This document shows positions 9,860-50,201 of a stretch of 64,000 nt of DNA, piece by piece. The translations under genes and the position numbers were made by a program. The notes below the pieces were generated by a model, which saw nothing but the letters and a program-made list of their open reading frames with translations, did no database searches and was not told the DNA's origin. Each line of letters begins with the position of its first letter. The first letter of the stretch is position 1. Location: NCBI GenBank assembly GCA_951406725.2, contig OX597816.1:18786001-18850000 (forward strand). Direction: 5' to 3'. The stretch comes from Octopus vulgaris (taxonomy: Eukaryota).

Positions 9860-9910
9860 TTTGTCAAAATATTTTCATCGCTATAAGTCCGCGACCTGTT
9901 CACTGACAAA
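9860..9910 (-). ncRNA. Hammerhead ribozyme-like motif, G3-C8 core variant
   Basis: Minus strand reads tttgtca-GTGAACA-g-gtcgc/ggacttata/gcgat-GAAA-atat-TT-tgacaaa: 7-bp stem I, 5-bp stem II, palindromic ATAT. The host repeat has 23-bp terminal inverted arms (~9780-9950). A decayed copy lies at ~45270-45320. Confidence 0.55.
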
Positions 9911-10112
9911 AATCCGTGCTGCATCTGCAAACACCTTCCACGCTGCAATTATTTTCGTTCCACCACACGATTTCAGATCAAATCACTTGCTATGCATGTA
10001 CATCTCCGTAATATATATATGTATATATATATATAACATGTGATCTCTTAAGCACCACCAGCTCAAATATTGTCTCCTCTGTCTTCCCTCCTTGGGATTT
10101 TTCCTTCTCCTT

Positions 10113-10147
10113 GTTTCCGACGAAGAGCTCCGCTCGAAACGTTAAAC
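10113..10147 (+). ncRNA. Minimal hammerhead-like motif (U4C core variant)
   Basis: gttt-CCGACGA-a-gagc/tcc/gctc-GAAA-cg-TT-aaac; stem III is reduced to the palindrome ACGT. Confidence 0.5.
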
Positions 10148-10266
10148 CCTCCTTCCCTTCTTTCCTGAGCGTCAATAATACTTTAATTGTTCCACGTCCT
10201 GCGTTGGTGTGTTTTTTCTCTTTTTTTCTGTGTTTTCTTGTTTGGATTAACTATATATATATATAT

Positions 10267-10588
10267 AAAGGATATGAAGAAAATGCTGACAAAATAATTT
10301 AAGTAATTTAAGTAATTTAATTACGTGAAAGTTCTTTTTACCGGTTGCGCATTTGTTATGCTTATCAAAAGATAATTTTTTTTAAGAGAGATAGAGTTCT
10401 TTTCTGATATATTTTTTTCCTCTTATCAGATAAGAGGAAAAAATCTGTCAGAAAAGAACACTATCTCTCTTTAAAAAAATCATCTTTTGATAAGCATAAC
10501 AAATGCGCAACCGGTAAAAAGAACTTTCACCTAATTAAATGACTTAAATTACTTAAATTATTTTGGCAGCATTTTCTTCATTTCCTTT
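10267..10588. repeat. ~320-bp near-perfect palindrome, flanked by (TA)n
   Basis: Centre cctcttatc-a-gataagagg near 10428. The arms mirror each other out to aaggatatgaagaaaatgctg / cagcattttcttcatttcctt. Confidence 0.92.
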
Positions 10589-10625
10589 TTTATATGTCAC
10601 AACTCGTGTTCCACATCTCCTTTTT

Positions 10626-10659
<34 letters not shown>

Positions 10660-10772
10660 AGTTTATATGTATTTATATATATATATATATATATATGTGT
10701 ACATATATATATGTGTGTGTATATATATATATGTATACATATATATATGTGTGTGTCTGTATGTATATATAT

Positions 10773-10831
<59 letters not shown>

Positions 10832-10836
<5 letters not shown>

Positions 10837-11832
10837 AAAAAATGAAGTTCGAAAATTCTGCTGTATTATACAATTTTTTATTTTTATATATACATTATAA
10901 CATGTTTCAGTTCCTGAAATGAACCTTATCAAAAAAAGTTATATATAAAAAAAGACAGCTCATGCCGTCAAACACAAGAAATTCATTTATAATACACAAC
11001 GGAGTCAGACATCTTAGAGTTCATGTATAGTTGATATATAGTTTGAAGTATATGTTCAAAGTGTTCGATGCAGTGGCCCACGGTGGCGATACGTATTCAA
11101 TACAAAAAAACAGATGAAAGTGGTGGAAAGCGGTCAATACAGAAGATTGATGTTTCCGAAAGAGCGAGGAATTCATTTTTATCTTAAGCAATTGTGATGA
11201 CCCATGGTGGATGTTCGCTGGGTGGATCTAGTGAGTTTTGTGAAGTGCTCGGTTTTATAATGCCTGTTAGGTGGTCAATCCAGCGTAGCGTGACGTCATC
11301 AACGTTTTGACCAATCGTTTCGTTAGGTGGCTTTATTACGTTGATGACGTCACGCTACGCTAGATTGACCACCTAACAGGCATTGTAAAACCGAGCACTT
11401 CACAAAACTCACTAGATCCACCCAGCGAACATCCACCATGGGTCATCACAATTGCTTAAGGTAAAAATGAATTCCTCGCTCTTTCGGAAACATCAATCTT
11501 CTGTATTGACCACTTTCCACCACTTTGATCTGTTTTTTGTATTGAATACGTATCGCCACCGTGGGCCACTGCATCGAACACTTTGAACATATACTTCAAA
11601 CTATATATCAATTATACATGAACTATATATCAACTATACATGAACTCTAAGATGTCTGACTCCGTTGTGTATTATAAATGAATTTCTTGTGTTTGACGGC
11701 ATGAGCTGTCTTTTTATATATATAACTTTTTTTGATAAGGTTCATTTCAGGAACTGAAACATGTTATAATGTATATATAAAAATTAAAAATTGTATAATA
11801 CAGCAGCATTTTCGAACTTAATTTTTTACAAT
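10832..11832. repeat. ~1-kb fold-back inverted repeat (arms ~475 bp, loop ~30 nt)
   Basis: ttgtaaaaaatgaagttcgaaaattctgctg... mirrors ...cagcagcattttcgaacttaattttttacaa. Apex gtgacgtcatcaacgt / acgttgatgacgtcac at ~11290-11352. The right arm has a short tandem duplication at ~11600-11645. Confidence 0.95.
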
Positions 11833-11862
11833 TATATACCTACTCGTATACGAGCTAATCCT

Positions 11863-11901
<39 letters not shown>

Positions 11902-12083
11902 CAATTAAGGGTTTAGCAACGAATTGCCTCACCACACACCGAATTTAGAAATAGCAGTCAAAGAGTTATAGCTATTATTTCTACTACAAGGGAGATCTCC
12001 GTAAAAACACAGCACTTGAAAGGCAAACACAGACAGGTAAGAGAGAATGAAATGATGGCAATCTATAATACAATTTTAAGTCA

Positions 12084-12174
12084 CCTACGGACGTACGTTT
12101 CGAAATCAAGTTTTAGGAAAGCATAAGAATTAGTTAATTCTACCTTACCCAACTTCTTTTCTCATCAGCGTAGG
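12084..12174 (-). ncRNA. Type-I hammerhead ribozyme motif with canonical core and extended stem II
   Basis: Minus strand reads cctacg-CTGATGA-[gaaa...60-nt hairpin...tttc]-GAAA-cgtacg-TC-cgtagg: 6-bp stem I, perfect palindrome CGTACG, GUC cleavage triplet. Confidence 0.8.
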
Positions 12175-13370
12175 ATACTACAATTATGAATAATTGTATA
12201 TTAAATTTTGAGATACTAGAAGGCATCATCTCAACTCAGTGTCAGAGCGAGCTAAAGCATTACCAGCATGCTGCATAGTACTCTTCCCTCCCAGATTTTC
12301 ACGTATCGTTGGAATGTAACACCCACGATAGTCGAGAGATTGCCATTTACTGAAAGGCAATACGGTAGCAATCCGATAAAATGATAGTCAGGACATATAC
12401 ACACTTTATTTGGACCCATATAGTTTATGAGTTAATATTGTAGCGAAAACTACCGTCTTTCCGCTGCCTATAGAAATGATATATGGTCTAATAAGCAAAA
12501 TTTATCAATGTAGGGATGTATATGTTTGTAGGAACCTACGTCGCAATATGTAAGTGTCATCTAGCTGCCTCAATGTCATGTTGATTAGAATTCCAACTCT
12601 GTTACAGCTGGATGTGATCAATATGTTGAAAAGAACACGAACTGATATTTAATTAACTTCCATATTTTTTTCAGACGGTTAAACTTTCTAAACCACGTGA
12701 ATATTTCTTTTCGTTTCACATTAAGATCAATGCCTTAAACGACAATACCTAATAAAGACACACACCATCCCGTGAATACCTGAAGGATTCTAGAGATTTT
12801 TATAGTATTCCTTAGGTGAGAGTCAGCAATGGATACATATATCATTTCTTGTAAAATGCATTAAGGTCTAATAGAATGAATATAGTAAAATATAATGAAA
12901 GGCACAATTGACGTTCAAATAAGTGATGAATTTCTGGAGAATGCTCCACAAGAGAAATATTACATAGATTATTACATGGAAGCTGGGAAAGTAATACCTG
13001 ATACAAAATGTACAGTATGACGGTCAAATAGTTTATATTTATGATATCTGAGTCATATATGCTACACACACACACACACATACTTAGGTATATGCATATA
13101 TTAATAAATATGGATACTATATATATACACAAGCATACACATACACACATATACATATGCATATATATATATATACATTCAAATACACACACACACACAC
13201 ATATATATACATAAACATGCAAACATACAAACACACACACACACGCGCGCATACATATGTGTGTACATATATTTCTAATATAGAATAAACTTTTTTCCAA
13301 AGTGGCCAGCATATTAAAATACCTTTAAAGGTGAAAATTATAAACAATAATTATTTTGTGTACATATATA

Positions 13371-15090
13371 TTTTGATTTTGATTTTGATTTTTCAATTTT
13401 CCAGTTTCAGCTCATGAGCTGTGGCCATGCTGGGGCACCGCCATTTGCTTTGCTACATGATTTTACCTCACGAATGCTTTTTAGCAACTGCCATTTGGTG
13501 CATGAGATAGTTCAATGCAGATGCCCTCATCTGCACCTCCTGCCGTGAAGTTGGTTCATCCGGGACACCTGACAGGAAGAGATCCAGTCCTACTTTTAAG
13601 ACATCCGCATCTACACCATGCAGGTCCCTCAGGTTCTTCGGGAGGATATTGAAGAGCTGTGGGCCTCTGTAGCCCAGGCTATCACAGTATCTTGACCTAC
13701 ATATTGATGGCAAATTTGGAGTCCTTGGTACTACGCAGTGGCACCCGGTTCTGGCATTTGTGTGACTCTCGATGCCAAAGTTTGGGACAAGTCCTTCCAG
13801 GATCTTCCAGATATATATCATGGCATATCTTTCTCGCCTGCGCTCCAGGGAATAGACCTTTAATCTCTTGAGTCTTTCCCAGTAGCTTATATGCTGCACA
13901 GAGGCTATCTTCTTCGTGTAGCTTCGTTGGATCGCCTAAAGTTCTGTGATCAACTTGACACTGGATGGTGACCATAGCTGAGAGCAATAGTCAAAGTGGC
14001 TTAGGACAAGTGTCTTCCAGAGGACCATCATGGTTTCTTGTTCTCTTGTTCTAAAGGTTCTAAGAATCCATCCGGCCAGCCGTCTACATTTCATTGCCAG
14101 TTTGGCAACATATACATGAAAGGTCGCGTCATCACTCATGTGAATACCCAAGTCACGCACTGATTGTGCCTCTGGGATTGCAATCCCTCCGGGTCCAGTG
14201 TATTCATTGGATATTGCATTCAGTTTTGCATGCTGATAGCATAAAGCATGAAACTTTTCAGCATTGAACTGCATGCTATTCTTTTCAGCCCACTTGTATA
14301 TTTCGTCCAGCTCACATTGCAGGTGCTTAGTGTCTTCAGGGTTCTGTATTGCCTGTGAAACTTTTGTATCATCTGCATAACTTGTGATCGTGGCTCTCTG
14401 CGTGGCTGAGGGCATGTCTGAGAGGTCCATTATGAACACTAGTGGTCCCAAAACAGTGCCCTGCGGAACACCGCTCACTAAATATCCGAAAAATAGCTCC
14501 TAGAAAGACGGGATAATGGAAAAGGAAATATTCAGCACGAATGGTTCTCCAATGTGTACATATATACTTCTATTCTTCAGAAAGTCATGAAGCCATTCTC
14601 CCAATTTTCCAACTATGCCAAGATCACGCAGTTTGTGACATATCATTCCATGATCGACTTTATCAAAGGCCTTTGCAAAGTCGAGATATATGACGTCCAC
14701 ATTTGAGTGGTTGAGCAGTCGTTTCAGCACCCAGTCATAGTGTTGTAGGAGCTGAGTTAAGCAGCTTCTTTCTGGAAACTATGTTGGGTGTCAGGCAGCA
14801 AGTCATTTTCTTCAAGGAAGGTGATTAGTTTCCTTCTGACTATTCGTTCCATGACCTTGCTGATGTGTGAGGTCAGAGATATAGGTCTGTAGTTCTTGGC
14901 CTCCGCTCTGCTACCTCCTTTATGAATAGGGCATATTTTACCTTCCTTCAGTTTTCTTGGAAGTTTGCCAGTTGCAAGGAAGCTCTGAAAGAGAGACTGC
15001 AGTGGTCTTGCTAGGACTCTCTTACATACTTTTAGAATGATTGCCGGGAATCCATCGGGGCCAGTAGCTGAGTTTGTTTTCATCTCATCT
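13371..15090 (-). mobile_element. 5'-truncated, disrupted copy of LINE A (RT region plus 3' UTR)
   Basis: ORF fragments NYRPISLTSHISKVMERIV, YLDFAKAFDKVDH, SGVPQGTVLGP, YADDTK and YSLERRRERY are colinear with 52.6-54.3 kb. (AAAATC)n tail; TA-rich at both junctions. Confidence 0.93.
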
Positions 15091-16539
15091 ATATATATAT
15101 ATATCTTTGTCACTTGCGCTAAAGAAGTGATTAGATTAAATGAATTGAGTTTTAGGGTAGATAGGATTGGATAATCAATGGCGGTCATTTTTCTGAAACA
15201 AGTAGACAAATATAAAACAGAAAACACCGGTTATTTTTCTTGTGCTAATTTCATTATTATAGGGGAACGCCGCGCACTAAGCTTTCTGGTATTATGAAAT
15301 TTGTTCCCGGACTACGTTGGATATAAGAGCTGAGTATTGAACTCATCTCCAGTTACTCATACGTTCAGCACCACATCGGGTTTTGCGGTCTGCCTTTTAA
15401 GTGCATATGACACATATGATACATGAAACTGTAAACAAGCACATACAGAGGAATGCAACACGCTGCATCTCGGAAAGACATTTACTAGGAGCGTATTAGA
15501 AATATTTCACGATATTCATTCTTACAGTTTTAAAAGAAACTAAGAAAAAGACAAGTCATGTACGAAATGCGTTACGGCGTGCAGACGTTAAATACTTTTG
15601 CGATGCTGTGTTCCTTAATATTAAAGCAAACGAAAAGAATATGAACAAACGATGAAAATATAGACGGTTCTGTTTTTTTTTTTTCTAAATGCATATATAT
15701 ATGTACACATTGGAGAACCATTCGTGCTGAATATTTCCTTTTCCATTATCCCGTCTTTCCAGGAGCTATTTTTCGGATATTTAGTTTTAATTTTCCTCAT
15801 TCTCCGGCTTTGTTCTTGTGCACAGCCGATTTTATTGTTGTATGCTTTCTACTTTGTTCGGAAAATATTAGATATGTTTCGTTTTCCCAAACCTATTGAA
15901 AAAAAAATATGCGATATATATTTTGCTATACATTATGCCGAGGCTCAATTTCATTTCTTCCTAACAACGCTTTCTCTTCCTGCATGAATATAACTCATAC
16001 AACCAGCAACATCAATTCTGCTTACAACGTGGAAAGTGAAACAAAATACCTATAGAGAAGAAGACTTCATATTATCTGCTGTCAGTTGTTACTCACTCAG
16101 AAATAATGTCTTAGTGGAGAGATATTCTACATACACCCACCAGGCTCGAAATGGCTAAATATTGAAGAAATGAAAACTATACCGCTAAAATTATGTGGCT
16201 ACCTACAGACAAGAGACACTTGAATATAATATTAATGTCGGACGCTAGCCCATTCATATAATATCTAAAATAATATTTCGCTACATATCTCGCCACTACG
16301 ACACAACCAAAGAAAGTCTAAATAGCATCTATATTTTTGTATGAGAATATTAAAAACATATTGTACAACAGTAGTGAATTGGTAGAATCAAAAGCACAAC
16401 ATAGAAGGTTCAGCATATTTCTTCCGACTTTACGTTCTGAGATACGACTGCAGGCTATTTTACTGTTCAACTTAATCGAAAGACTTACACTTGGATCTAT
16501 GTAATCAACTTGACTCTTCCCTTAAAACTGATCGCTTTC

Positions 16540-16741
16540 TACTCTTTTACTCTTTCAGTCATTTGACTGTGGCCATTCTGGAGCTCCGCATTTAGTCGAG
16601 CAAACCGACACCAGCACTTATTCTTTGTAAATCTAGTACTTATTCTATTGGTCGCTTTTTGCCAAACCGCTATATTGCGAGGACGTAAACACACCGGATC
16701 GGTTGTCAAGCGATGTTGGGGGGACAAAAACAGACACACAA

Positions 16742-16824
<83 letters not shown>

Positions 16825-16995
16825 TACACATATATATACGGGTTTCCTTCAGTTTCTGTCTACCAAATCCACTCACAAGGCTTTGGTCGGCCCGAGGCTA
16901 TAGCAGAAGACACCTGCCCAAGGTGCCACGCAGTGGGAGTGAACCCGGAACCATGTGGTTCGTAAGCAAGCTACTTACCACACAGCAACTCCTAC
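16540..16995 (-). mobile_element. SINE family 3; a decayed plus-strand copy lies at ~17150-17460
   Basis: Same head, tail and internal (CA)n(TA)n as 8378-8764. Confidence 0.85.
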
Positions 16996-17781
16996 TGTTT
17001 AACTTGATCGAAAGATTTACACTTGGATCTATGTAACCAACTTCATTTTGTTTTAAAATTGATCGCTTTCTGTGAAAAATTAGAAAGACTTGGAGAAACA
17101 TAACGAAGGTGAGAATTTTTCGGACTACACCACAATTACAAAAAAAAAAAGTGGTTGTATGATAATTTGTTTCCCAACCATATGGTTGCAGGTTCAGTCC
17201 CACTGCGTGACACTTTCAGCAAGTGTCTTCTACTAGAGCTTTGAGTTCATTTGACAGATGAAAATTGCCAGAAAACAGTCCTGTGTGTGGGTCTGCTTGT
17301 ATTTGTTCCGCATTACTGCTTGACAACCGGTGTCGGTTCGTCTACGCACCTGTAACTTAATGATTCGGCAAAAAGGATATGAAAGAGATGATAGCCTGAG
17401 TACTAGACTTAATATAAGTATTCGAAACAAGAAGTCCGGCTTAAACCATTAAAGGCGGTCTTGTAGCAACAATAACTGAATCAGGTTAAAATAATTTTTG
17501 AATGTTTAATCAGAGAAAAATGCCAAACGTCAATTGCGAAATTACTCCAAACACATCTCTCTCCCCCTCTCTCTGTCTCACGCCCTCTCTGTCTGTCTGA
17601 TTGTCTGTCTGTCTCTCTCTCTCTCTCGCTCACTCACAGACAGTCACACACGAAATGGCGAGTGATAATCTCTTCAGTCATGTTAGTTTCGAAATACAAA
17701 GGGTAATGTTTACGCCAGTCAGATGTTTCAATAATGTGAATATACGTTATTTATTAAAAATATTTTGTCGATTATATATAC

Positions 17782-17831
<50 letters not shown>

Positions 17832-17887
17832 GTATGTGTGTATCCATGTAGGTACGTATGTGTATGCATGGATGTTTACTACATATA

Positions 17888-17933
<46 letters not shown>

Positions 17934-18155
17934 GATACGTGTAGACATATATGTACGTGTATGTGTGAGTGGGCGCACATGCTTACTCATATGCGAATAA
18001 ACGCATGTGAATACTCATGAAAACTTAAGTACTGAAATATATCTTTAAACTTCGCACTAACCGCTTTTTCTCTGGGTTTATTCGAAGAATGTCAGTCTGG
18101 TTGTGACTTTTATAATCTTCACATGTTTCTGGTTCTTTCCTTACAATTTCTATTC

Positions 18156-18214
<59 letters not shown>

Positions 18215-18484
18215 ATTTACGTTTTCTTCATTTTTACTCTTCAACTTACGCCTTTGATCGTTATGCAGTTTGAGCTAATATAGTTATAATGAAAACGAAA
18301 CTTTCTCATCGAACGTGATCATTGTAGTATGAATACACTTAGTGATCACAATAAAACCTCTCTGTTTTTTTTCAGGTTTGCATTTTCAAAAGATAGAAAA
18401 AGGAAACTTATTTCTCCAATATATTGCAGTCGGACGAAAAAACCAAAATATATAAATATATAAATAAAATAAATAAGTAAAAAT

Positions 18485-18514
18485 AAATGAATAATAATAA
18501 TAATAATAATGATG

Positions 18515-18579
<65 letters not shown>

Positions 18580-18697
18580 AATAATAATGATAATGATAAT
18601 AATAATAATAACGATAATGATAATAATAATAATGATGATGATGATGATGATAATAATGATAATAATAACAGTAATAATAATGATAACAATAATAACA

Positions 18698-18728
<31 letters not shown>

Positions 18729-18796
18729 CGACGATGATAATGATGATGATGATGATGATGATGATGATAATAATAATATTAATAGTAAAAATAATG

Positions 18797-18856
<60 letters not shown>
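18485..18856. repeat. (AAT)n/(GAT)n compound microsatellite
   Basis: Read directly from the sequence. Confidence 0.97.
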
Positions 18857-19290
18857 TATAAATAAATAAAAGAAACGGAAAATTATGCGGGTAAAATCAG
18901 AAATTCATATCTTTTAAGGCGAAGAAAAATATATCATAAAGTTAATTATATCTACCATTGATGTAAAAGAACACGCAATGAGCGCGCGCTGCACACAGAC
19001 ACACGTATAAATGATACGTGGCTGTATGTGTGTATAAGCGTACATGTTCGTTTCTTTGTGCTTCTTCTTTTGTAATACGTTCATGTGTAAGAACACTCGT
19101 TTATATGTGTATGTGTGTGTAAATATTACGAAGTATTTGAGTCGCATAGAAACAATAACTAGAAAGAATACTCAGCACAAATATTATTGTTGCGCTGATA
19201 AATTACTGACTTTATAACCTACATTCCCTTGCTCCGCCATTTCCACTCCCACTCTCTCTATCTCTGTCTTCTCTCTCTTTGTCTCTCTCA

Positions 19291-19323
<33 letters not shown>

Positions 19324-19445
19324 CCTCTCTCTCTCTCTCTCTGCATATATTAATACATGCATTGATTCATATTGTTTGTGTGTACTTGTGTGTGCGTGTA
19401 TGTGTTTATGTATATGCGTACGTATGTATGTTTATTATATGTATT

Positions 19446-19489
<44 letters not shown>

Positions 19490-21039
19490 GTGTATGTATA
19501 TATGTATATATATATATGTATGTATGCATGTATATATATATATATATATAAATGTATGTATATATATATATATATATATAAGTGTATATATGTATATATA
19601 TATATATACATATATACATACATATACATGCACAAACATATATATATATATATATATTTTTATTTATTTATATATTTATGTGTGAGTGTATGTGTGTGAG
19701 TGTGTGTGTCTGTGTGTATGTCTATAAGCGCATGTGTGTGTTAACGGTTATGATTATAACGTTTTAAAATATATGTATTTTTCTTTCACTTTTTATATTT
19801 ATCCTTTTTAAATTATTATCTGATCAAAGCGGAACAATATTCTATATAAAGCCAAAACATAAACACATCGCACATTGCCATCATCTTCCAAATTATAGTG
19901 CAATAAACATTTTATTACAAAATGCATATTAGAACTCTCGCTTAACATCAGAATTTTATAGTACAGGATTGCATTTGTTATAACCTTTTAACTTGGAGAT
20001 CACCAAACCTTACAGCAAATATTCAACAATAGTTCCACATTTTAATTTCACGTTATATTCTCTTCGCAACACTTTTATGCGTTCTATCAGCGATATTTTT
20101 GACGATACATTGGAATAAATTAGAAATATATCATGCAATATTCCCACCGCCTCACGGAATATTTATTTGCTACAGAGTGACTGAGTTTCATTCTTAAGAG
20201 CTGTAGCAATAACAACAGCTCGAAATCGAATAAGAATAGTTATAATATTTTCTATTATAGGCAGAAAGCCTAAAATTTTAGAGGAGTGGTCTTACTAGCA
20301 GAGACAACAAAAGCAGAGGTAATAATAAAAAAATAGTAGTAATATTAGTAATATTGGCAACTATGATAATATTAAAACCATTAATGATATTCTCTAATAA
20401 CTGCACTAAATACACTTTAACTGCCCTGTTGTTTCTCAAATTTTATCTCCATTTTTTTCTTCGTGTACAGTTAGAATAATTGGAAAAGAGAACTGTTGAA
20501 CTTCAAAAATATATTCGTTATTTTTAATTGAAATGGTAAACACGTTTGGTATTCGGGTCTCGTATATCACTTCTGAACACATAGAAAACACTTTCCACAA
20601 GGGCTTTTGATTTTGTTCTTATTGTTCGGTTTTAGCTTTTCTTATCAGATTTAAAATTGGTTAAATACAAAGAGAGAAGAGAAATATATCAGATATATGC
20701 GTATATAGTGCAGATTTATAAATGACATAACGAGTGATGTAATATTTTCATATGAAATATTATTGCTTTAAACGCGATATTTGCAACCATATAATGTGAT
20801 CGGTGTTATGTATTTCGAGTTTAAATCTGAACTATTCGTTGAAGAATGATATTCCAACAAGAAATGTTTTGTTTAGATAAAAATAATATTAAGTGCATTT
20901 ACATTGCATCTTATCGTGTGATTTAACGATTCCGGTGCTGTTACGGTTGCCCAGCTGTTCACAGGCCATTTCTTTGTCTTCTAATGCCTATAGCTTTTAG
21001 TATGTGCCTGAAGGAAGAAAATATTACTCTTCTTGTATT

Positions 21040-23183: not shown

Positions 23184-23215
<32 letters not shown>

Positions 23216-23984: not shown

Positions 23985-24700
23985 ACGGGAAGCTTTATGA
24001 AAGTAGACAAAAGACGAAGACAGGTTTACGGAAATAAACAAAAGACGAAGGCAGGTGGAATACAAACAAACAATTGTATTAGTATGGCGCTCAGGAAATA
24101 TAAATAAAACAAGTCTGGAAATAAATGGGTCAAGATAGAAAATGCTAAAATAATTTTATGAAAAATCATCTCAGTACCGGTTTCAGTCATTGAGACTTTT
24201 TCAACGGTAACAAATGATTAAATTTAGAGAAATTAAAAGAAAAGATTTTTAAAAGAATATTTGTATAGTGTTCAAATACAAGTAGCATTTTCCTTGTTTT
24301 TGCCTGTCTCTGTCTCTTGTTTACTCTCATGAAAGATAATAATGTTAGCGGCCGATACATTATTATCTCTCATGAATATCAATTTTCTTTATATATTCTA
24401 TTTGTTTTGACTTAGGTCCTTTTCGCAATGCGGCTTGGGCCCTGAAACGGACAGAGGCATTGTTTGAATGTATATATAAGTTTGTTATGAGTAGACATCG
24501 ATGAATACAATCATGTGCTTTTGGTGTTAAATTCGAAGTCATGATACCATGTTAAATGGTATTCTTTCTTGCAATTTTGGAGAAGTAAGTCACAATCCTT
24601 ATTCACGTCGTTCTTTCCAAAAATGCCTGTGAAAATCTAGTCTTAATTTTTGTGGCTTCGGAGTATTTTTGACTCCTAGTTTTAGGAAAACTTGTTTCAT
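23340..24700. repeat. Diverged inverted repeat (arms ~23340-23600 and ~24435-24700) enclosing other repeats
   Basis: taggagtcaaaaatacttcgaagccacaaaaa...ggcatttttggaaagaacga mirrors tcgttctttccaaaaatgcc...tttttgtggcttcggagtatttttgactccta. Confidence 0.8.
24171..24210 (-). ncRNA. Hammerhead-like motif, U3-A8 core variant, with damaged stem I
   Basis: Minus strand reads ttaccg-TTGAAAA-agtc/tcaat/gact-GAAA-ccgg-TA-ctga. Confidence 0.45.
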
Positions 24701-26923: not shown

Positions 26924-27030
26924 ATCACGACAGTTGTTTCGACACATCTAGCATCAATCCGTCTTGGGTGTGACACTCAACAACTGGTTCAGGAGCATCC
27001 GGTGGCACGGATGTATCTCGTCGGTCGATA
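26924..27030 (-). ncRNA. Degenerate hammerhead motif with long stem II
   Basis: Minus strand reads atcga-CCGACGA-gatacatc...gatgtgtc-GAAA-caactg-TC-gtgat: 8-bp stem II base, near-palindromic caactg, GUC triplet, imperfect stem I. Confidence 0.5.
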
Positions 27031-33713: not shown

Positions 33714-34510
33714 GGCTTCTCTTAGCGTAGATGTTTTCATTCATGGGCGTTAGCTACAGCATTAAAGTGGTTTAGCTCTTATTTCTAGCAAAGCAGGCGT
33801 TTCCTAAGGCCCTAGCCACATTTAGTAATAATTACAATTCTCCTTTCTGGTGAAACTTTGCGAACTGCAGTTTATATTAATATTATGTCGGCACAGTACC
33901 AAAGTATCCAACACTGCCGTCACGTTTCAGGACCAGTTACTGCAACAGCCCGCAGATTTTTCATATTTTTCTAAAGAATCTGTGCGACCTAAAAAAAGCG
34001 GATGTAGGTGGCTTCAAAGCAAAACTGGATATCTTCCTGTCGAGATTCCCTGATGATTGTTTCGGCACAACTTTCTCTCACTCTTTCCTCCTTCATCTTG
34101 TTGCTCACTTGCGACGGAACGGAGTCCCGTCCAGGTGGGGAACCTATACGCCAATGAAACCGGGAAACTGGCCCTAATGAGCGAAGTGTGGTTCGATAAG
34201 GAACAAACATGAAATCATAGTTCCTAAATGTAATGTGAAAAATGGATGGAGAATTGGCTGAATATAGGTCATAGCTCTTATTACGAAAATAAGAAGTGTG
34301 GGTTCGATTCCCACATGCTTAGTAATGCCCATTCCTCCACCCGTTATTATGGTTTATATATCCTAACATAAAACTATTTTCTATGGTCAAGATAGGATAA
34401 AAGCTTATACTTCTATTTGCAATATGCGCGCACACGCACACACACATATACATGCATGCGGCTGAAATATTTCTCTGTATTGCTAATATTTACTATGTAC
34501 ATTAAACAAT

Positions 34511-37724: not shown

Positions 37725-37761
<37 letters not shown>

Positions 37762-37762
<1 letters not shown>

Positions 37763-38149: not shown

Positions 38150-38176
38150 AAACACACACACACACACACACACACT

Positions 38177-38221
<45 letters not shown>

Positions 38222-38231
38222 AGAGAGAGAG

Positions 38232-40069: not shown

Positions 40070-40101
<32 letters not shown>

Positions 40102-40110
40102 TAATAATAA
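39770..40110 (+). mobile_element. 3' end of an R4/Dong-like non-LTR retrotransposon ending in (TAA)n
   Basis: Manual translation IPGNPKMSEIQKIVFMGTAHILRKILSV* resembles recalled R4-clade C-termini (QK..LLGTA.ILR). The 3' UTR runs into (AAT)n. Confidence 0.6.
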
Positions 40111-40295
40111 AATCGAAAACTACCTTAAGAATGAGAACCAATTTCGAAATTTCCCCAAACACATGATGTAGGCTGGAGTGTATAACAGTCGAAACGTTGT
40201 GTTAACTACAAACAAATGAGAACAAATATCCGTCAAATGTGAACAAATGTAAATAATGTACGTAATTCCACATCTCATAAATATAGAACTGTTAA
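40110..40295 (+). mobile_element. Penelope pseudo-LTR-like repeat with a decayed hammerhead (40158-40203); reverse copy at ~43400-43540
   Basis: aacac-ATGATGT-a-ggctg...cagtc-GAAA-cg-TT-gtgtt. The reverse copy lacks the core and lies next to a Penelope RT fragment. Confidence 0.55.
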
Positions 40296-40545
40296 ATGTG
40301 TTTGTATAACATAGATGAATTAAGAAACAAACGGTATGGTTGTATTGTTTTACATCATTATATTACCTCCGGAATAATATCAATGTTTTCCTCGAAACAT
40401 ATGTCGGACGTACGAAGATTTGAATAACACCTGCGTTTGACTCCATTTCTTAATTTATATATATCTCTATCTATCTAGCCATCTCCTTTTCTATCTCTTT
40501 CTCTCTCTCTCTCCCCTATATATATATATATATATATATATACAT

Positions 40546-41066
40546 ACGAGCAAAACTGCCCTCGTCCAATGGACGGTGCTGAATGATATCTGCTGAATGA
40601 AAAGCAATCAATGTTTTCTGTTCATTAAAAAATATTTAAGCATGCCTTTATTTCAATAAAATTTTTGGTTTTGTTAAAAAAGTCAAAGAAAAAAAGGAAA
40701 CTTCTTGAGAAACCGAATAGTCTTTCCTTCCTTCATGCCAAGTTTGAAGACAATATCTCTTTTGCATCTTATTTTTTTGGTCTCTTAAATATACTGCATT
40801 TTGTAGCATTTTTTATCGTGTACGCGTAGTATCTATCGCAACAGATGATGTACTTTCGCGTACAAATGCACGTTCCCATGGCTTTATTGATCGCATTCTC
40901 ACCTGGAATCGATTTTTGTAATTTTTTCAAGGCCTATACACGCCCTGATATCGTCGGTAACTTCATATCAAATTTCAGCGCAATCGGATGGAGGATGCCC
41001 GAGAAGACACACACGCAGACAGACAGAACGGATTTTATATAATATTTATTTATATATATATATAGA
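40546..41066 (-). mobile_element. Non-autonomous Helitron/Helentron-like element
   Basis: Subterminal hairpin cgtcca-a-tggacg ~15 nt from a CTCGT (CTAGT-like) end. The other end has aaatttcagcgcaatcgg...cagacagacaga. Inserted in (TA)n. Confidence 0.5.
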
Positions 41067-43564
41067 TGTGTGAAGAATTTCGATAATATCCTAATAAACT
41101 TTCTCAAAATTAGAACATTGTTAAACCTCAGCTGTATTTCGATTTAGTAGATCCGGTGAGAAATAATTTAATTTAATATGATATAGGCATGAGCCATTCT
41201 ATTCATATTATTTGGGTAGACGTTAACGTTCTCAACATTTTTCGCCTCCTCTCGCATTCACTAATTCCAATACAAAGCAATCAAACGATTTCAGTACAAC
41301 GTAGACTTCGTCGATAAATTATATGGCTTTGATCTCTTTCCTAAGGCTTTTGATTGTAAGCTAAATTTTCAAAATTGAAAGAACACAAGATAATGCCATT
41401 AACGCATTTTTATTTGGTCTTTTAGTTGTACATTGAGTAATTAATTTCGTCTGCTTTAACTGCAGGCCGTGAATTATGCAAAATCTACTAAATTTTCACC
41501 TAACTTTGTTTGCAGCCAATGAATTAAATTTACTAGTAACATATCTCATAGTTTACCATTTACTAAATATATGAAACCACTTGAATATACCAGCACCCAC
41601 TTAATACTGGCAGTATTAGAGGTTACTGATTAGTTCATGTGGAAGGTGAGAAAAATCAAATAGGGTGCTTGTATTGTCTGTACACTCCATTCTAATACAT
41701 ACCCATAGTGTAATTTCAACAGAAACTGAAGATTACAAAAAGCATTATTATTTTACCCCACAATATTTCTTTATGATATTATTATATAGAGAATAATAAC
41801 TCTTATAATATTTTTATGATTACTGCATCACTCCATCAAAAATATCGTGTCTCATGACAAACAGCAGACTACACAATTTCAACCTTATTCTGAATCGGAG
41901 GTGTGAAACCAGAGTTATAAATTATCTAGACGAATATTATATTGTTCGCGTCAGGTCATTCGGAACGTGTGAAATCTATAATCATGTCTAGAGAATCAGT
42001 GACGTGATAACTGAAGCGTTTACATATTTTAATGCATTGAAAATAATTAAATTTATTCAATGTTACGTAGAGTCGAACGTGAACAATGTTGCAGCTTGAA
42101 CATTAATAACCTTGGCCTTTTGCTTTAATTTCACATATTAACCACTTTCTAGATTTTAGAGCATTCATTAATGACAGACAGTGTATTACATATTCTAAAG
42201 GCTGTAAATTCCAATAGTGTGTACTTTAATGGAAACGGTGACTGCTCGTGTCTTGAATATTCCATTTTTGTATCGGTTTTCTTCATTAGCATTGCCAGAC
42301 CATTTATCATCGTGGCCTGGAAAGTTACAGATGAAGTAAAACTGATATAAGACAAATATTAAGCAGCAACAGCGTACATCTTTTGATGTGTTTTTCTTCA
42401 GAGTATTGATAAACATTAAGCCTGTCCGCTTAATTATTTACTGTACTTAATGTCATAATAAATACAGCAATTATCTTTCTTTAAAACTCATGTCATCGGA
42501 AATGCAAAAGTGTTATAGACATAAATTATTAATGATATAAAAAAACAAAAAAACAATTGATTTTTAACGCAGGCCGAAAGCCACATATTTTAGGGGAGGA
42601 AAATTAATTGAATTGATCTACGAGTTCACTTGCACTTTTTTTGTACTCAACCCTGACAGATGAAAGGCAAAAATCAATGTGAATAGGATTAAAATTTAAA
42701 AGCTACTAACAAAAATATAATATAATTTTCTATGTTACTCTGCCATTTCTACCCCATGCAATTTTAATGATAATAAATTCCACATGATGTATAAATAACG
42801 GGGAATAATTAAATGGGTGAAAGTGTAGCGGGATGGTTAAATAAATTAGGGTTCACTCTAAATTATGACTTCTATACAAGCGTGAGAGAGAAAGAATTTG
42901 TAATTTACTTCAAACGATTTATTTAATATTTAATTTTTAAGTGGAGGGTATAAATCAAATAAGGCCCACTTCTAGAAAGTGGTAGAAAAATTCCTTTCAC
43001 AAGTTTGATACTTGAGATCCTTTTCGGTAGTGATGATTGTCAAATGTAAAAGAATGGTAAATGGGTTTTCGTTTAGGTGCAAGATGAGAATGTTTCGAGT
43101 GTGACGGGATGAGAAGATTACATTGATGCACTATTTGACTAATCCTATCCTATATTTCATAAACGCCAGAGGGTTGGAAGGTGATATTAATATCATGATG
43201 ACTTGATAATCACTGTAACATAGAGCAATAGGAACAAAAGCAAAATAATTATAATGTTAAATAAAGTTGGATACTTCTTCTGCGCATGTTCACGTGAATG
43301 GTTGAAATCTCAGTACAACTAACTGAAAATTTTACTAATCATAATATATTTTACCAGCCACATGAGTGGGCGTTGAAACAATTAACCATTATGTCAGTCT
43401 CTATTTATATTATTTACATTTGACGGATAATTTTCCTCATCTTGTTTCTTGTTAACACAACCTTTTGGCTGATATACGCTCCAGGTGTCTTGGGGAACTT
43501 TCTAACCAGGGTTCACATCCCTAAGGTATTTTTCGATGTTATTCTTCTTATTGACACTGTGATA

Positions 43565-43770
43565 AACGATCCCTATTGATCGTTTTTTTCTTTTTCCCTA
43601 TTTTTCCTTTTTTCTTCTTTTTTTTCTTTTTCTTTTCTTTTGTTTCTTTTCCTTTTACGATCTCTTTTGATCGAAAACCTACCCCCCTTTTCTTTTCTCC
43701 AAAAAAAGAAAAGCTCTACTTTGTAATCTGTCCCGTCTGTGTGCAGCCATGTGTGGCTTATAATGAAACA
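43565..43770 (+). mobile_element. T-rich 3' end of an unclassified retroelement; reverse copy at ~59396-59585
   Basis: aaagctctactttgtaatctgtcccgtctg(t/c)gtgcagcc(a/c)tgtgtggct is shared by both copies. Confidence 0.65.
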
Positions 43771-43985
43771 TATTCTTCTTATTGTTATTCAGGTCACTGC
43801 CTGGAATCGAACTCGGAATCTTGGCCCTAGTAGCCCGCGCTCTTAACCACTACGCGATATGCTGTGGGCAATTAGGGAGTGAATTTTAGGGCTTGTAAAT
43901 CTAATATTTTCCTATCCTTCCTTAATATGCTACTCACATCTTCACTAGTTCTGCTTAGAGCGTATGAATAACACGCACCAAGTAT

Positions 43986-44120
43986 GAATTTATGACATCT
44001 GTATACCGCAAGCCGACCTTTACTGGACGATACCTCAACTTCAACTCCCACCATCCATACCGCGTAAAGAAAGGGATTGCTTAGTGCCTAAAAGATCGAG
44101 CAAAGAATATAAGCAGCGAT
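43986..44120 (+). mobile_element. Penelope-like RT C-terminal (thumb) fragment
   Basis: Manual translation EFMTSVYRKPTFTGRYLNFNSHHPYRVKKGIA*CLKDRAKNISSD fits the PLE pattern T.VYRKPT...YL.F.S.HP...K......RA. Confidence 0.8.
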
Positions 44121-44399
44121 CGGATATTAATGATAAATATATTATCTCTGCCTCGGATCCTTTTACTATACAGATTACCTGTTTCCAATAAATACTTGAA
44201 ATAACGGTTAGGTCTATATATTTGTTTATCGTCCTGCTCGAATTATTGAAACAATAATTTCTTATCGATTATTCGTGTCCATGATATAAGTATCATTTTT
44301 ACCATTGATAACTGAAAATATTAGATTCGAAATTGTGTAGTATATATCCCTAACAATTTCCTTCAATATTGTCGGTGTATATTACACTGTCTACTTCAT

Positions 44400-44630
44400 T
44401 TACTCTTTCTTTTACTTGTTTCAGTCATTTGACTGTGGCCTTGCTGTAGCACCGCCTCTATTCGAGCAAATCTACCCCAGGGTTTATTCTTTATAAGCTT
44501 AGTGCTAATTCTATCGGTCTCTTTTGCGGAACGGCTAAGTTACAGGGACGTAAACACACAAGCATTGGTCGTCAAGCGATGTTGGATGGGGTACAAACAG
44601 ACACACAAACATATATACACACACACACAC

Positions 44631-44679
<49 letters not shown>

Positions 44680-44853
44680 TACATATATACGACGGGTTTC
44701 TTTCAGTTTCTGTCAACCAAATCCGCTCACAAGGCTTTGGTCGGCCCGAGGCTATAGTAGAAGACACTTCTCCAAGGTGGCATGCAGTGGGATTGAACAT
44801 GGAACCGTGTGGTTCGTAAGCATGTTACTTAGTACACAGCCACTCCTACGCCT
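44400..44853 (-). mobile_element. SINE family 3
   Basis: Same structure as 8378-8764. Confidence 0.85.
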
Positions 44854-47800
44854 ATATTTGTTCTTAAATAAATTTTTCTTCTTCTAATGAGTTGTTTATA
44901 TTCTGTGCTGATTTATCCCCTCGGCATAACGGAAATTTAGCTAAATGATACGATATTTAATGGAATATTTAATTAATGCCGCAGAGGTGTGATGCCTTGG
45001 TTTCTTTTTCTTGTTTAGATACTTTCGTAAAAGCTTAGTTACTAAACACAAGCATATAAGTTTGTAAAGTGGACAGTTTTATGGCGGTTAAGTCTAAATG
45101 TTCGAGTAAAAACTAAACTATAATAGAAGAATTACGGAGATGTTCTTGCATAGCAAGTGACCTGATCTGAGATCGTGTGCTGAAACAAAAACAATTGCAG
45201 CGTGGAAGGTGTTTATAAGCCATTTAAAAACACAAAAACTGTTAGATTCACTTGAATATTTAAATTTAATTTGCCAAAATATTTTTGTTGCTATGAGACA
45301 TTGACCTGCTCATTGACAAACTTCCGTGCTTTATAATAGAAGAATATGTCTAAAATGATGTATAATATTAATTATAATTATAAAAGTATTCTCTTTATCC
45401 TTTCTAATGTAGTATTACTTTAGAGCAGCACTGTGGTATACGTATGACATAGACGTAGGATCCTAAAAAGCATTGGAGAATATCAGCAGCAAAGCCATCC
45501 AGTGATGAAAATTATCCGGTGGTAACGGTGGAATTGCTAAATCTGGATTTCTGCGTATTTGCGCATCAACAGTATCAAGCAACGTCTAACAACCTGATAC
45601 TTAAACAAATTTAAGCACTGCTGATTGAGAAAAAACAGTAATTAAAGATTTGCAGCTGTTACAAATAGATGGTAGGCTCTCAGAAACATGTCATACATTT
45701 CTTCGCAGTGTATCTGAAGAGAAAATGAGATCGTATTTGCGAAAATAAGAAACACCTGAGTCCAAATTGATATTTCAAAAACGCAATCATCAAAACAAGT
45801 TCCACAGATTCGTAATAATTTTGTGCACATCACTTTCACTACCGAACACTAAGAGTGTGTAAAGTAGAAAAAAAATGACATTCATGATAATTCAAAAATT
45901 ATTAATATGCCATTATCTAATACAATACTGTGCTAAAGCAGACATAATAGATTATATATTACAGTAAAAATATAAGTCTAATCGGGAATAACATCAAAGC
46001 AACAACAGCATCGGAATTAAATACTAATGACAGAGCAGCGGTAATCATGATTTCTTATGCTAAGCATTTGCTCCTCAAGCAACAAAGCCATGAATAATCA
46101 ATGATGCTAAATCATACACAGCGGATTTTTATGATTATACACTGAAAATGGGGCATAAATATCGGTGTAGTTATGGATAAGTGTAGCTGAAGGTAGCTTG
46201 TGACTACGTCGTCGCAAATTCGAATCAGTGCATGTCATGTGTGAGTAATTTCTTGGTGCACCTTATGTGTTGTCCATTTTTTGTTGATGGAAACTTTTTT
46301 TAAGCGTTCCTTATGGGTGTATATATATATATTACTTTGTCTCTCTCTCTCTATCTCCCTTGTTTTTTTCTTTTTTGTATTTTTGCATTTATATTCGTGT
46401 AACATTGTCTGGTTTTCCGTCCTTGTTTGCGTATACATTCGATGCTTTTTTCCAAGGAATCTAATGCTCTTGGTTTAGTCTTTCCATGGGGTTGGCCAGA
46501 TTGGAGAAATCTCAAGATTAATCAGCCGAAATTGCGAGGATGATCCGGTTCTTGACTGCAGATAAAAGTCTTGACCAAAATACGGAATGGGGTGTCCCAT
46601 TATGGATGCATTTGAATGTAACAGATAAAAGTTAAAATATAGCCTCTGCTGTCATGCATTTTGTAGCTCAAATATCCTACACTAGTTCTTATTTTATCAT
46701 TATCATTTTATCATTATCATTATCATTACCTAGCAATATGTTTCTGATTCTGCTTAAATATCGAGGAAAATGTAATCTTCCAATTCCACCCACAGTAAAT
46801 GGTTTCAGAGTACTTTCGAAGATATTTATACGAATTCATTGATTTGCACTAATGTGTAAAGCGGATTAATAATGATTAAATGTTCAGGCTTCTTGAAACC
46901 ACCTTTCTTTGTAAATAGACAAAACTTTTCTTGTCTAGTACGACCTTCAATGAGAATGGTTACATTTTTCATGAATATACTCTTGTGGTATCCTCATTGC
47001 CGTTTTAGAACAAACATGGAACTAGTGTGAAGAAAATTCTGGAAAAGATAGTATTTTAATCAAAACACAGTATTCTCAAGTACCCAATATTAATCATACT
47101 TTAATTTGTTATAATGAAGCAAATATAATAATTGATTTGTCGGAATGTATTAACGAGTACATTAATAAATTCATAACCTATAGAGCAATGTAACTTCTGA
47201 AATGATTATTCTGTAAAATTCTGACCATTTGGTCTCAACGCATTCACCATGAGCTACAATGTGGATGTTCACTCATTCTTAAAAGCTATTTGATTGCGCA
47301 AATTTAATGGACGAATGGCTTGTGGCTGTAGTGATATGAATGTAAACCACTTAGTTCTTATTAAATGGTCAAAATTATAGAGACTGTTGATTTAATCGAA
47401 ATACATTGATTAAAATTTCTCATGCATTACTATGGAATTTTGCTACATTCTTTTTCATTAGGATAAATCCTGCTTCCAATGAACTTTATTGTAACGTAGT
47501 TGGAGGATTCGGTGCAAGTTCGACGCGTATCTTGTACAAGAGATTTAAGTGATAATCACTTCGCAAAATACGTTTATATTTCTCTATTATAACTCTAAGC
47601 ATAAATATGTTTGTACTGTATTAATTTGGTGAAAGTTATTTCAGAAATACAATTCTGAAGTAAGCAATAATAAATCGCTGAACGAGGTATAAGCAGTAGC
47701 TGCACGACAATGTGAAGTATATTTGCCACTTAAATGTGGCTAACCACTAAGGGAGTCATGCTACTGTAGCTTATAGCCCCAGGAAATCATCTCTTCCATC

Positions 47801-48084
47801 TGCCTATTGACACACTTTCTGTGCCCTATATGCAAACTTGAAACTAAGTGTTCCATAATATATCGGTTACTCATAAAGCTAAACATGTTTATGAAGTTCC
47901 TTACTTTCCTTCGAATTCACATCGTGTAGTCCATCGTGAAGTTTTTCTCAATCGCAAATTCTTGATTTTCTTTCAATGGCTGCTATTCTATGAACGGTTG
48001 TTTCTTATTTCAGACGAAATCTTCCCAGTTACGGATATCTTGTTCTATACCGCCGTACTACTGTAAAATTCGTTGCGAATGCCG

Positions 48085-48237
48085 TCTCTGACACCACACC
48101 GGATGTTACCTTCGTCTGTGGGCACTGCTCACGGACCTGCCTTTCCCATATTGGACTTGTCAGTCATGAGCGTGCATGCGCGCAACATGGACAGCCTTCC
48201 TGATCTTCGTTCGCGAAGCCGAGCAATGATGATGACT
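48085..48237 (+). mobile_element. 3' end of an RTE-clade LINE
   Basis: Manual translation FVCGHCSRTCLSHIGLVSHERAC...* (C-terminal zinc finger), then hairpin cttcgttcgcgaag and an (ATG)n tail. Confidence 0.75.
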
Positions 48238-49334
48238 GTAAAATTCCTTGTGAATTTAATCCTAGTAAAAGAACTTGGGAAAAACTTCACTTGAGGTGTC
48301 GTATGGTGTCTCGATACATTTTCAACTGATGAGGGAGGGCTAAAGGTTCCTAGATTTGTGTAAAATAAAATGAAGGCGGTTAAGTTCAATATCACTTTAT
48401 TCATCACACTTATTGCAGCTGTTCTTCAGTTTTTCTAAGCCCTGTAGAAGAACTCGAATGTTTCAGCCACAACCATGCCTTTGCGAACTCTTAAAACTAT
48501 GAATATTTAGCAATTCTGCGTAAGCAACAAAATTCACCGAAAAGCCTTTTACAGATTGAAATATTTCTCAAATATATGTGAACAGGCCTGAAGTTTGTTC
48601 ACTGTTAGTCAATGCTTCGCTATCCTATCATACATTCTTTGCAATTTTATATGATATGAATGTTCTATCTGTATATACTTTAACAATATGTATTGCTTAT
48701 TCTCAATTAATATTTAATATTTCATTGTGTCTGGGGAGAGTCATTTTCTTTTGAAACATTTTCTTTTGAAACAAAAGGAAACGCAGTGTAAATAACGAAC
48801 AGAGTCAAAACAATTGATAAGGTCGCAAGACGCAACGAAAATTTTTGGACAATAAAAATAAGAAAATCGTGAAAATTTTACCGGTGAGTGTGTTACATAA
48901 TAAGGCACAAAAAAGGAAATGACTCTCCCCAGACACAATAGAATATGCTTCAACACACGAACTTATACAAAGAATCTTGCAAACCAAATCCCAGAACGAA
49001 ATTCAATATTTCACACGTGGTTTTAAATGTGCACATGCACTGAGATAACATCGACAGGTATTTGTGGATCCTAGATTACCTATTTTAATTTTTGAAAACC
49101 ATTCATGTTCACATAGCATTCTTGGTAATCGAGGCATGTAGAAAATACCTACGAGTATCATAAATCTGTAGGAATTTTCATTTCATACTTTTAAATTCTT
49201 ATCTCAGTTTTGGAAGAATGAACTTGGTTTATGTCAATGCATATGGATAAGAAGTGGTTTTACCAAACCATTAAACTACAAGTATTACAGTACTTTATCA
49301 GCGTGACACTGCTTTTAATGTCTTCAAAATGTAC

Positions 49335-49543
49335 TTACTCTTTTACTCTTTTACTTGTTTCAGTCATTTGACTGAGGCCAATTTGGAGCACCGCCTTTAG
49401 TCGAGCAAATCGAACCCAGGACTTATTCTTTGTAACCCTAGTACTTATTCTATCGTTTACGGTTGCCGAACTGCTAAGTTACGGGGATGTAAACACACCA
49501 GCGATGTTGGGAGGACAAACACAGACACACACACATACACACG

Positions 49544-49575
<32 letters not shown>
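49335..49575 (-). mobile_element. SINE family 3, 3' half (5' half at 57684-57846)
   Basis: ttttacttgtttcagtcatttgactg...ggacaaacacagacacac(TA)n; stops at the internal microsatellite. Confidence 0.8.
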
Positions 49576-49789
49576 ATGATAAATCTCATAGCGAGTTATA
49601 AACAGTAGCGGTAACACATCGTGACGCATAATTGCCATTTCATTTGAATATGGCTAACCCCTAAGGGTGGATGCTACTGTAGTTTGTAGCCCCAGGAAGA
49701 TATCTCCTCCAGCTGGCTATAGACACACTATCTGTGTCCTCTCAGTATTTGTGAAGGGGAGTCATCCTCCCCGTCTTCAACTCATGATA

Positions 49790-49834
49790 CACACGGACCC
49801 GAGTTTCAAGGTGTTTACGTTTCATCAGCGTGTG
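49790..49834 (-). ncRNA. Type-I hammerhead ribozyme motif (inverted copy)
   Basis: Exact reverse complement of 50157-50201. Confidence 0.75.
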
Positions 49835-50156
49835 ACAATCATGGTTGTCGACGAGAAGTCAGCTCCATTCACAAATACATATACTTTTTCCGTGTCGATT
49901 GACACTGATAGTGTGTCTATAGCCAGCTGGAGGAGATATCTTCCTGGGGCTACAAACTACAGTAGCATCCAGCCTTAGGGGTTAGCCATATTCAAATGGC
50001 AAATATGCGTCACGATGTGTTACCGCTACTGTTTATTACTCGCTCTGAGATTTATCATTGTTTGATTTCACTTTTTCAATATCAGTGTCAATCGACACTG
50101 GAAAAAGTATATGTATTTGTGAAGGGAGCTGACTTCTCGTCGACAACCATGATTGT

Positions 50157-50201
50157 CACACGCTGATGAAACGTAAACACCTTGAAACTCGGGTCCGTGT
50201 G
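50157..50201 (+). ncRNA. Type-I hammerhead ribozyme motif with canonical core
   Basis: cacacg-CTGATGA-aacgt/aaac/acctt-GAAA-ctcggg-TC-cgtgtg: 6-bp stem I, stem II with one mismatch, near-palindromic stem III. Predicted GUC cleavage after 50195. Confidence 0.78.

Follow-up and report, generated by a model that had tools for sequence, protein, structure and literature searches.

Minimal hammerhead motifs of Penelope-like elements in Octopus vulgaris, including an abundant family with a flipped G3-C8 core pair

Hammerhead motifs in the window

This study concerns eight hammerhead ribozyme motifs in a 64-kb stretch of the Octopus vulgaris genome (contig OX597816.1, positions 18,786,001 to 18,850,000 of assembly GCA_951406725.2), referred to here as the window, which lies in a 2.8-Gb genome rich in TA repeats. 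The motifs, labeled S1 to S8, had been proposed in an initial annotation, whose placement of every core, hairpin, GAAA or GCAA segment, palindrome and UH, by coordinate and strand, we confirm. Position numbers within the motifs follow the standard hammerhead scheme, which agrees with that of the papers cited below. Judged from their sequence, the motifs are minimal type I hammerheads of Penelope-like elements (PLEs), an already known class, and in S8 both partners of the core pair between positions 3 and 8 are swapped.

The flipped pair of S8 (9860-9910, minus strand) consists of G3 at 9903 and C8 at 9898. The motif also carries an extra G after A9, a stem I of 7 bp, a stem II of 5 bp and the palindrome AAUAUU, with the predicted cut after U17 at 9867. 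Its host copy (9776-10012, minus) is composed of a 5'-truncated PLE end (9776-9927, minus) and an inverted piece (9928 to about 10012, plus), flanked by TA repeats. A second copy of the family, absent from the initial annotation, lies at 45131-45330 (minus) and is decayed, with A3, G7 and broken stems.

The core CUGANGA...GAAA...UH occurs in literal form in S1 and S2 only. S1 (12084-12174, minus) joins this canonical C3-G8 core to a 6-bp stem I, a long stem-loop II, the palindrome CGUACG and GUC, and S2 (50157-50201, plus) joins it to a 6-bp stem I, the near-palindrome CUCGGG and GUC, with one private mismatch in stem II. The remaining motifs depart from the literal core by C4 (S3 and S4), U3-A8 (S5, S6 and S7), G3-C8 (S8) and C13 (S7). 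S3 (10113-10147, plus) has C3-G8, C4, an extra A after A9, 4-bp stems, a CG palindrome and GUU. S4 (26924-27030, minus) has C3-G8, C4, a stem II of 8-9 bp, the near-palindrome CAACUG and GUC, and the 5-bp stem I of its family is broken in the window copy. Among the U3-A8 motifs, S5 (24171-24210, minus) shows a 4-bp stem II, a CCGG palindrome, GUA and a private change in stem I; S6 (11732-11765, plus) shows a 5-bp stem II, a CAUG palindrome, GUU and a stem I of one contiguous pair; and the hammerhead-like motif S7 (10487-10516, plus) combines A13C with a poor stem I.

Inverted twins of three motifs also lie in the window: S2 at 49790-49834 (minus), S6 at 10899-10932 (minus), within a fold-back insertion at 10778-11900, and S7 at 10339-10368 (minus), within another at 10259-10595. 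These two fold-back insertions and a third at 49544-50441, up to 1.1 kb long, are head-to-head PLE ends that, if transcribed, would give long double-stranded RNA.

When family majorities were examined, the private stem breaks in the window copies of S2 (50157), S4 (26924) and S5 (24171) proved to be mended. In these majorities, S1, S2, S3, S4 and S8 have a stem I of 4-7 bp and a stem II of 4-9 bp, and the stem I of S5 consists of 3 bp, a mismatch and 2 bp. Next to the core, stem I fails in S6, with its single contiguous pair, and in S7, with two pairs followed by a mismatch; the S7 majority also has GCAA instead of GAAA. Helix III is mostly 4-6 nt, and its palindrome is perfect in S1, S3, S5, S6, S7 and S8, with one G-U in S2 and one mismatch in S4. 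In S3 and S4, where C3-G8 is kept and U4 has become C, a minority S3 subfamily carries U4, which accounts for 14-32% of the depth across four read sets.

Occurrence of the motifs above controls

A strict descriptor was defined as type I with positions 3 and 8 free and with stems I and II of at least 4 bp. In the comparison with shuffled DNA, a check named in advance, it matched the window three times (S1, S3 and S8), against 0.13 matches per shuffled window over 30 shuffles. With stem I relaxed, six sites were found, all six Watson-Crick at 3-8, corresponding to five of the eight motifs and the inverted twin at 10932. Under this relaxed descriptor, shuffles gave 0.27 Watson-Crick and 0.81 non-Watson-Crick matches each, and none of 100 shuffles had more than four Watson-Crick matches. 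A single match, not Watson-Crick, was obtained from the reversed window.

Similarly, a blind genome sample of 40 stretches of 10 kb (400 kb) held 13 strict matches, of which 11 were Watson-Crick (7 C-G, 3 U-A and 1 A-U); shuffles of this sample gave 1.2 matches and the reversed sequence none. Across 0.99 Mb of pooled DNA, all eight multi-copy clusters were Watson-Crick at 3-8, and there were 15 singletons, about 4-5 of them expected as descriptor background.

An Rfam scan of the window (E≤1, 134 matches) returned no hammerhead family, even for the canonical S1 and S2; the Rfam hammerhead models do not extend to minimal helix III forms. The expectation that CUGANGA searches would miss such variants is supported, and both these descriptors and Rfam overlook abundant hammerhead families.

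Host repeats and linkage to Penelope-like elements

Every motif sits in a high-copy repeat family. A rough first look, with 40 candidates scored for each motif, gave 1,765 copy candidates for S1, 1,539 for S2, 1,627 for S3, 2,745 for S4, 348 for S5, 1,033 for S6, 668 for S7 and 2,212 for S8. Copies share a 3' end fixed 100-300 nt beyond the motif and variable 5' ends, and inverted twins are frequent, with tandem twins present too. These shapes include the hallmarks of PLEs: copies cut short at the 5' end, partial copies in inverted or tandem arrangement, an optional 3' tail and insertion at TA repeats.

PLE coding sequence lies upstream on the same strand in six of the eight families (S1, S4, S5, S6, S7 and S8), in agreement with the proposal that these are PLE-type minimal hammerheads with a palindromic helix III. 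For instance, a 458-amino-acid frame with reverse transcriptase (RT), zinc-finger-like and GIY-YIG regions ends 977 nt upstream of S6 (locus L190), and a PLE frame lies 979 nt upstream of S1 (L045). For S8, frameshifted RT and GIY-YIG pieces occur about 1.3 kb upstream in L186, and in L030/L187 an endonuclease (EN) piece lies 897 nt upstream. PLE EN sequence is also found 304 nt upstream of S5 (L109), upstream of S7 (L140) and upstream of S4 (L053, L054, L063, L056 and L068), the distance being about 450 nt at loci with a scored motif. The S6 frame and the S8-clade frame of L187 both match Pfam RVT_1 and GIY-YIG; the S8 and S4 coding pieces have no Pfam match and were assigned by tblastn to the S6 and L187 frames or by their own motifs. 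The nearest named protein to one PLE frame is from Octopus vulgaris, at 93% identity.

Conversely, no descriptor match was found within up to 2 kb downstream of the PLE frames L189, L128, L159, L125, L035, L150, L183 and L188. The window itself contains a remnant of a PLE endonuclease region at 3450-3674 (plus), 39% identical to the S6 frame; the 2 kb downstream of it gave no hammerhead match.

Core pair 3-8 across families and clades

Positions 3 and 8 are Watson-Crick in all eight motifs, as C-G in four, U-A in three and G-C in S8. The initial annotation interpreted this as covariation among otherwise unrelated repeats. The three states are real, and the covariation is thinner than proposed: four motifs stay C3-G8, and the three U-A motifs share one clade. 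The CCGACGA cores are still C3-G8, the altered letter being U4C. Nor are the repeats unrelated, as the G-C motif and one C-G motif belong together in another clade.

These clades come from a tree built on 12 pieces of C-terminal protein sequence, of which three are less than half filled. Clade A (97/99) contains S8 (G-C), F182 (U-A, a family discovered in the blind sample), F187 (C-G) and S1 (C-G); clade B (99/97) contains S5, S6 and S7; and S4 falls in clade C. The three U-A motifs of clade B therefore probably count once, and clade A, which holds three Watson-Crick states, offers better evidence than was previously at hand. S8, F182, F187 and a further family, F108, all carry the extra G, and their stems II resemble one another apart from two compensatory swaps, for which the shuffle control is weak because it covers six rows from four families. 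A metagenome scan yielded nine clade A relatives; one distant relative carries a hammerhead, also U3-A8 (L275), and none was found within the short flanks of the other eight.

Overall, Watson-Crick pairing at 3-8 holds in 13 of the 14 multi-copy families (permutation p = 3.5e-4), the exception being F108. Neither a G.G nor a C.C family turned up among the pooled clusters or the S8 and F108 pattern matches. Pyrimidine-purine mismatches have persisted in masters, whereas the purine-pyrimidine flip was seen only when fully compensated. Additional U3-A8 families were observed at L111, L172, L202 and L003, two of them with a stem I of 5-6 bp.

The G3-C8 family

A 19-letter S8 pattern with positions 3 and 8 left free has 6,504 exact matches genome-wide and none in the control. 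Among the first 100 matches listed, 94 are G-C, six carry single changes and none a double change, as neutral decay from a G-C master predicts. The copies form two waves, an older one of 15 rows at 6.3% divergence and a younger one of 37 rows at 1.9%, and G-C is the majority in both; in the older wave, G3 is present in 11 and C8 in 10 of the 14 covered rows. Between the two waves, none of seven diagnostic differences falls in the 41 structured columns, a result that is not significant alone (p = 0.10). In four sequencing runs, available as contigs, no other letter at positions 3 and 8 occurs among the 40 rows listed out of 48. S8 pieces are also the commonest of the eight in the blind sample (7 versus 0-3). 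The G3-C8 family, with more than 6,000 copies, is likely still able to cut.

The 3' ends of S8 copies fall into two classes, at about +133 and +192 from stem I and roughly 58 nt apart, which resemble the "tail" that the anole PLE produces when its RT starts at either of two sites (PMC11167929).

Just upstream of S8 lie a branch-point-like CTAAC, a pyrimidine tract and a CAG (L186, about 7845-7885; window 9911-9927, minus), the AG of which is 15 nt before stem I and is followed by an ATG. Of the 24 S8 pieces that were found independently, 12 begin in the stretch from -24 to -1 relative to stem I. These candidate splice-like signals recall the intron end beside helix I in the Drosophila virilis Penelope.

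Interpretation and alternatives

Our preferred reading is that these motifs, located near the fixed 3' ends of 5'-truncated copies and behind PLE frames in six of eight families, probably include in the G3-C8 family a working minimal hammerhead with both 3-8 partners swapped. It builds on observed features: the anatomy, the family membership, the PLE linkage and three Watson-Crick states within one clade. In tandem or multi-copy transcripts, two motifs may swap the halves of their palindromic helix III, probably assisted by the element's own protein, and would then cut slowly after position 17 (U17 in S8), as a dimer or with protein help. Position 8 is expected to act through its 2'-OH, so any Watson-Crick pair at 3-8 could position it. 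U17 in the G-C family would dodge the inactive G3-C17 pair open to C17; by the same logic S5 and S7, which combine U3 with A17, could drop into a matching U3-A17 trap. The cut would likely free the element from read-through or tandem transcripts. If the uncut RNA is the insertion template, selection on the core would be indirect and leaky: real over long times, and permitting S7, and probably S6, to amplify with impaired cores.

Several observations weigh against this reading. When the pairing test is collapsed to six lineage states, five of six are paired (p = 0.05), and for S2 and S3 no PLE frame was found within 1.5 kb at 15 loci each, with one S3 locus showing PLE EN about 6 kb upstream and microsatellites between. 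None of the 24 S8 pieces begins at the predicted cut, and 15 of them hold the whole core. Among the first 100 listed of 1,862 matches to an S7 pattern, C13 occurs in 98, U13 in two and A13 in none. In F187, C9 is present in most of 23 copies and in most of the young ones, with A9 kept in a subfamily. The 43 matches to an F108 pattern comprise C.A in 17, G-C in 12, U.G and U-A in six each, and C-G and A.C in one each, the 13 G-C and A.C matches being of S8 type; of the 20 that were read, four G-C and one U.G are S8 copies and the others an old, diverse group. Finally, anole PLE mutants with a dead hammerhead still insert in vitro (PMC11167929), and the S8 palindrome duplex is computed at only -0.2 kcal/mol.

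These points bear on the claim, made at the outset, that double changes reflect selection on catalysis. It is partly supported, as nearly all families are paired, and is weakened because uncompensated A13C, C3.A8, U3.G8 and A9C are fixed or common in multi-copy families. By contrast, the view that UUU or a weak stem I marks a dead copy is not sustained: by our count, 24 of the 56 PLE-type motifs published in PMC4209133 (Fig. S3) have U17, one of these being a UUU from oyster, and some have a stem I as short as 2-3 bp, so that neither trait, being normal in PLE hammerheads, is a mark of death. In S7, a core that is likely dead sits in a family that is still being amplified.

The strongest alternative, which we regard as rather unlikely, holds that the motifs are hammerhead-derived and mostly dispensable for catalysis, serving the PLE protein as a folded landmark or riding along as passengers of the pseudo-long terminal repeat (pseudo-LTR), with G3-C8 representing two neutral changes in one amplified master. 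The spread of families with A13C, A9C, C.A or U.G speaks for it, as does the lack of S8 pieces starting at the cut, and G3-C8 is a single evolutionary event. In the lizard, moreover, dead mutants insert and no RNA-seq reads are reported to end at the cut (PMC11167929), and Naiad PLEs proliferate without canonical hammerheads (PMC8557442). On the other hand, two transversions fell exactly at paired positions, and two waves of amplification left the other core letters, the 7-bp stem I and G10.1-C11.1 unharmed. The near-uniform Watson-Crick pairing of the 14 families and the lack of G.G or C.C families also speak against it.

Another explanation, unlikely in our judgment and overlapping with the preferred one, accepts selection on the 3-8 pair and proposes that the ribozyme is a protein-chaperoned monomer or acts in trans, the palindrome being of minor importance. 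It draws on the lizard PLE hammerhead, which cuts only with added protein (PMC11167929), on palindrome duplexes that are weak in S3 (-1.7 kcal/mol) and S4 (-1.0 kcal/mol) as well as in S8, and on the non-palindromic GAAC loop of F108 and F187. Genomic twins are also mostly inverted, so a read-through RNA would combine a motif with its antisense and would not contain a dimer. Against it, each of the eight motifs has a palindromic or near-palindromic helix III, whose letters vary by family while the palindromy stays, and a Schistosoma minimal hammerhead cleaves as a dimer and not as a monomer (PMC4209133).

Chance matching of a loose descriptor in AT-rich, repeat-rich DNA is very improbable: the descriptor background is about five matches per 0.99 Mb and S6 and S7 fail the 4-bp stem I, yet the window and genome samples stand about tenfold or more above shuffled and reversed controls, the stems are restored in family majorities and the motifs lie at the expected site downstream of PLE frames, which refutes a chance origin for S1-S5 and S8 and, since S6 and S7 follow PLE frames of the clade of S5, points to descent rather than chance for these two as well.

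Three of the families discussed here deserve separate mention. S7 (10487-10516 and 10339-10368) reaches at least 1,862 copies despite A13C and a poor stem I, and is a candidate for a ribozyme that has died within a PLE family that spread successfully. F187 copies were located at L187:590-790 (minus) and L212-L231. F108 is an old repeat group (L204-L211, L232-L263 and L268-L271) with a non-palindromic GAAC loop and C.A, U.G, U-A and C-G at 3-8, and no coding frame was tied to it.

Relation to known systems

The motifs share with the pseudo-LTR minimal hammerheads of PLEs described by Cervera and De la Pena in 2014 (PMC4209133) the type I topology, a tiny palindromic helix III, G10.1-C11.1, a short stem I, frequent U17 and inverted twins 100-700 bp apart. 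That class is already on record as having the palindromic helix III, optionally one more base following A9, and a U3-A8 variant with about 1,300 matches in Schistosoma, and these ribozymes cleave weakly and only as multimers (PMC4209133). Differences lie in the G-C of S8 and the C4 of S3 and S4: the 56 motifs in the Fig. S3 text of that paper include no G-C, no C4, two U3-A8 and one U3.G8. No octopus entry was found in the accessible portion of the same paper.

In the green anole PLE Poseidon, the single changes C3G and G8C abolish cleavage, which returns in part when both are combined and which requires the PLE protein (Frangieh et al. 2024, PMC11167929). Poseidon and the families described here have in common a pseudo-LTR hammerhead, two 3' end classes and copies that keep the uncut motif. 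G3-C8 is a laboratory double mutant of a C3-G8 ribozyme in the anole, whereas in S8 it is the natural majority of thousands of copies; the PLE clade is also a different or unassigned one. Partial rescue of G8C by C3G is reported elsewhere as well (PMC8495972), and a G3-C8 variant was less active with C17 than with G17, which was discussed there in connection with an inactive 3-17 pair, on data not shown (PMC3884650). Perreault et al. 2011 (PMC3088659) describe U3-A8 covariation in nature and a viroid U4C with reduced activity in vitro; the core variants of that survey are rare single cases, with no natural G3-C8 or A13C mentioned in its accessible text, whereas here variants mark whole retroelement families. 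The short-stem-III PLE variants of Lunse, Weinberg and Breaker 2017, which cleave as dimers, belong to the same class by their title and by a review description (PMC6765202).

In the literature searched, which does not cover Lunse 2017, the largest survey of these variants, G3-C8 was encountered only in engineered cases. A natural G3-C8 variant is apparently previously undescribed, and the novelty of S8 is provisional. More tentatively, S8 could be the first natural hammerhead family with a G3-C8 flip, so far seen only as an engineered rescue mutant, and be active, with U17 co-evolved against the G3-C17 trap, within a PLE lineage that keeps the whole compensatory path (C-G, C.A, U.G, U-A and G-C) as dated families; we consider this possible, though less than probable. 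Cleavage by S8 would mean that the classic compensatory double mutant of the core arose in nature and was amplified thousands of times, and would give evolutionary support, for minimal ribozymes of the dimer type, to the 3-8 pair found in the active fold. The presence of compensated families beside broken-core families makes it testable whether PLE hammerheads must cleave for their elements to persist or ride along.

Other features of the window

Two RT frames of the window, at 12842-15230 and 52673-55795, were considered as hosts of S1 and rejected, being long interspersed nuclear elements (LINEs) of the apurinic/apyrimidinic (AP) endonuclease type, 86% alike and unrelated to the motifs. The frame at 52673-55795 (minus) is an open AP-endonuclease and RT frame of 1,040 codons, and that at 12842-15230 (minus) is its broken relative, 86% identical.

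The Rfam matches in the window consist of microRNA matches driven by microsatellites and one weak tRNA-like match. ARAGORN called no tRNAs in the window, including at this tRNA-like match (34248-34322, plus, 36 bits), which is probably the head of a short interspersed nuclear element.

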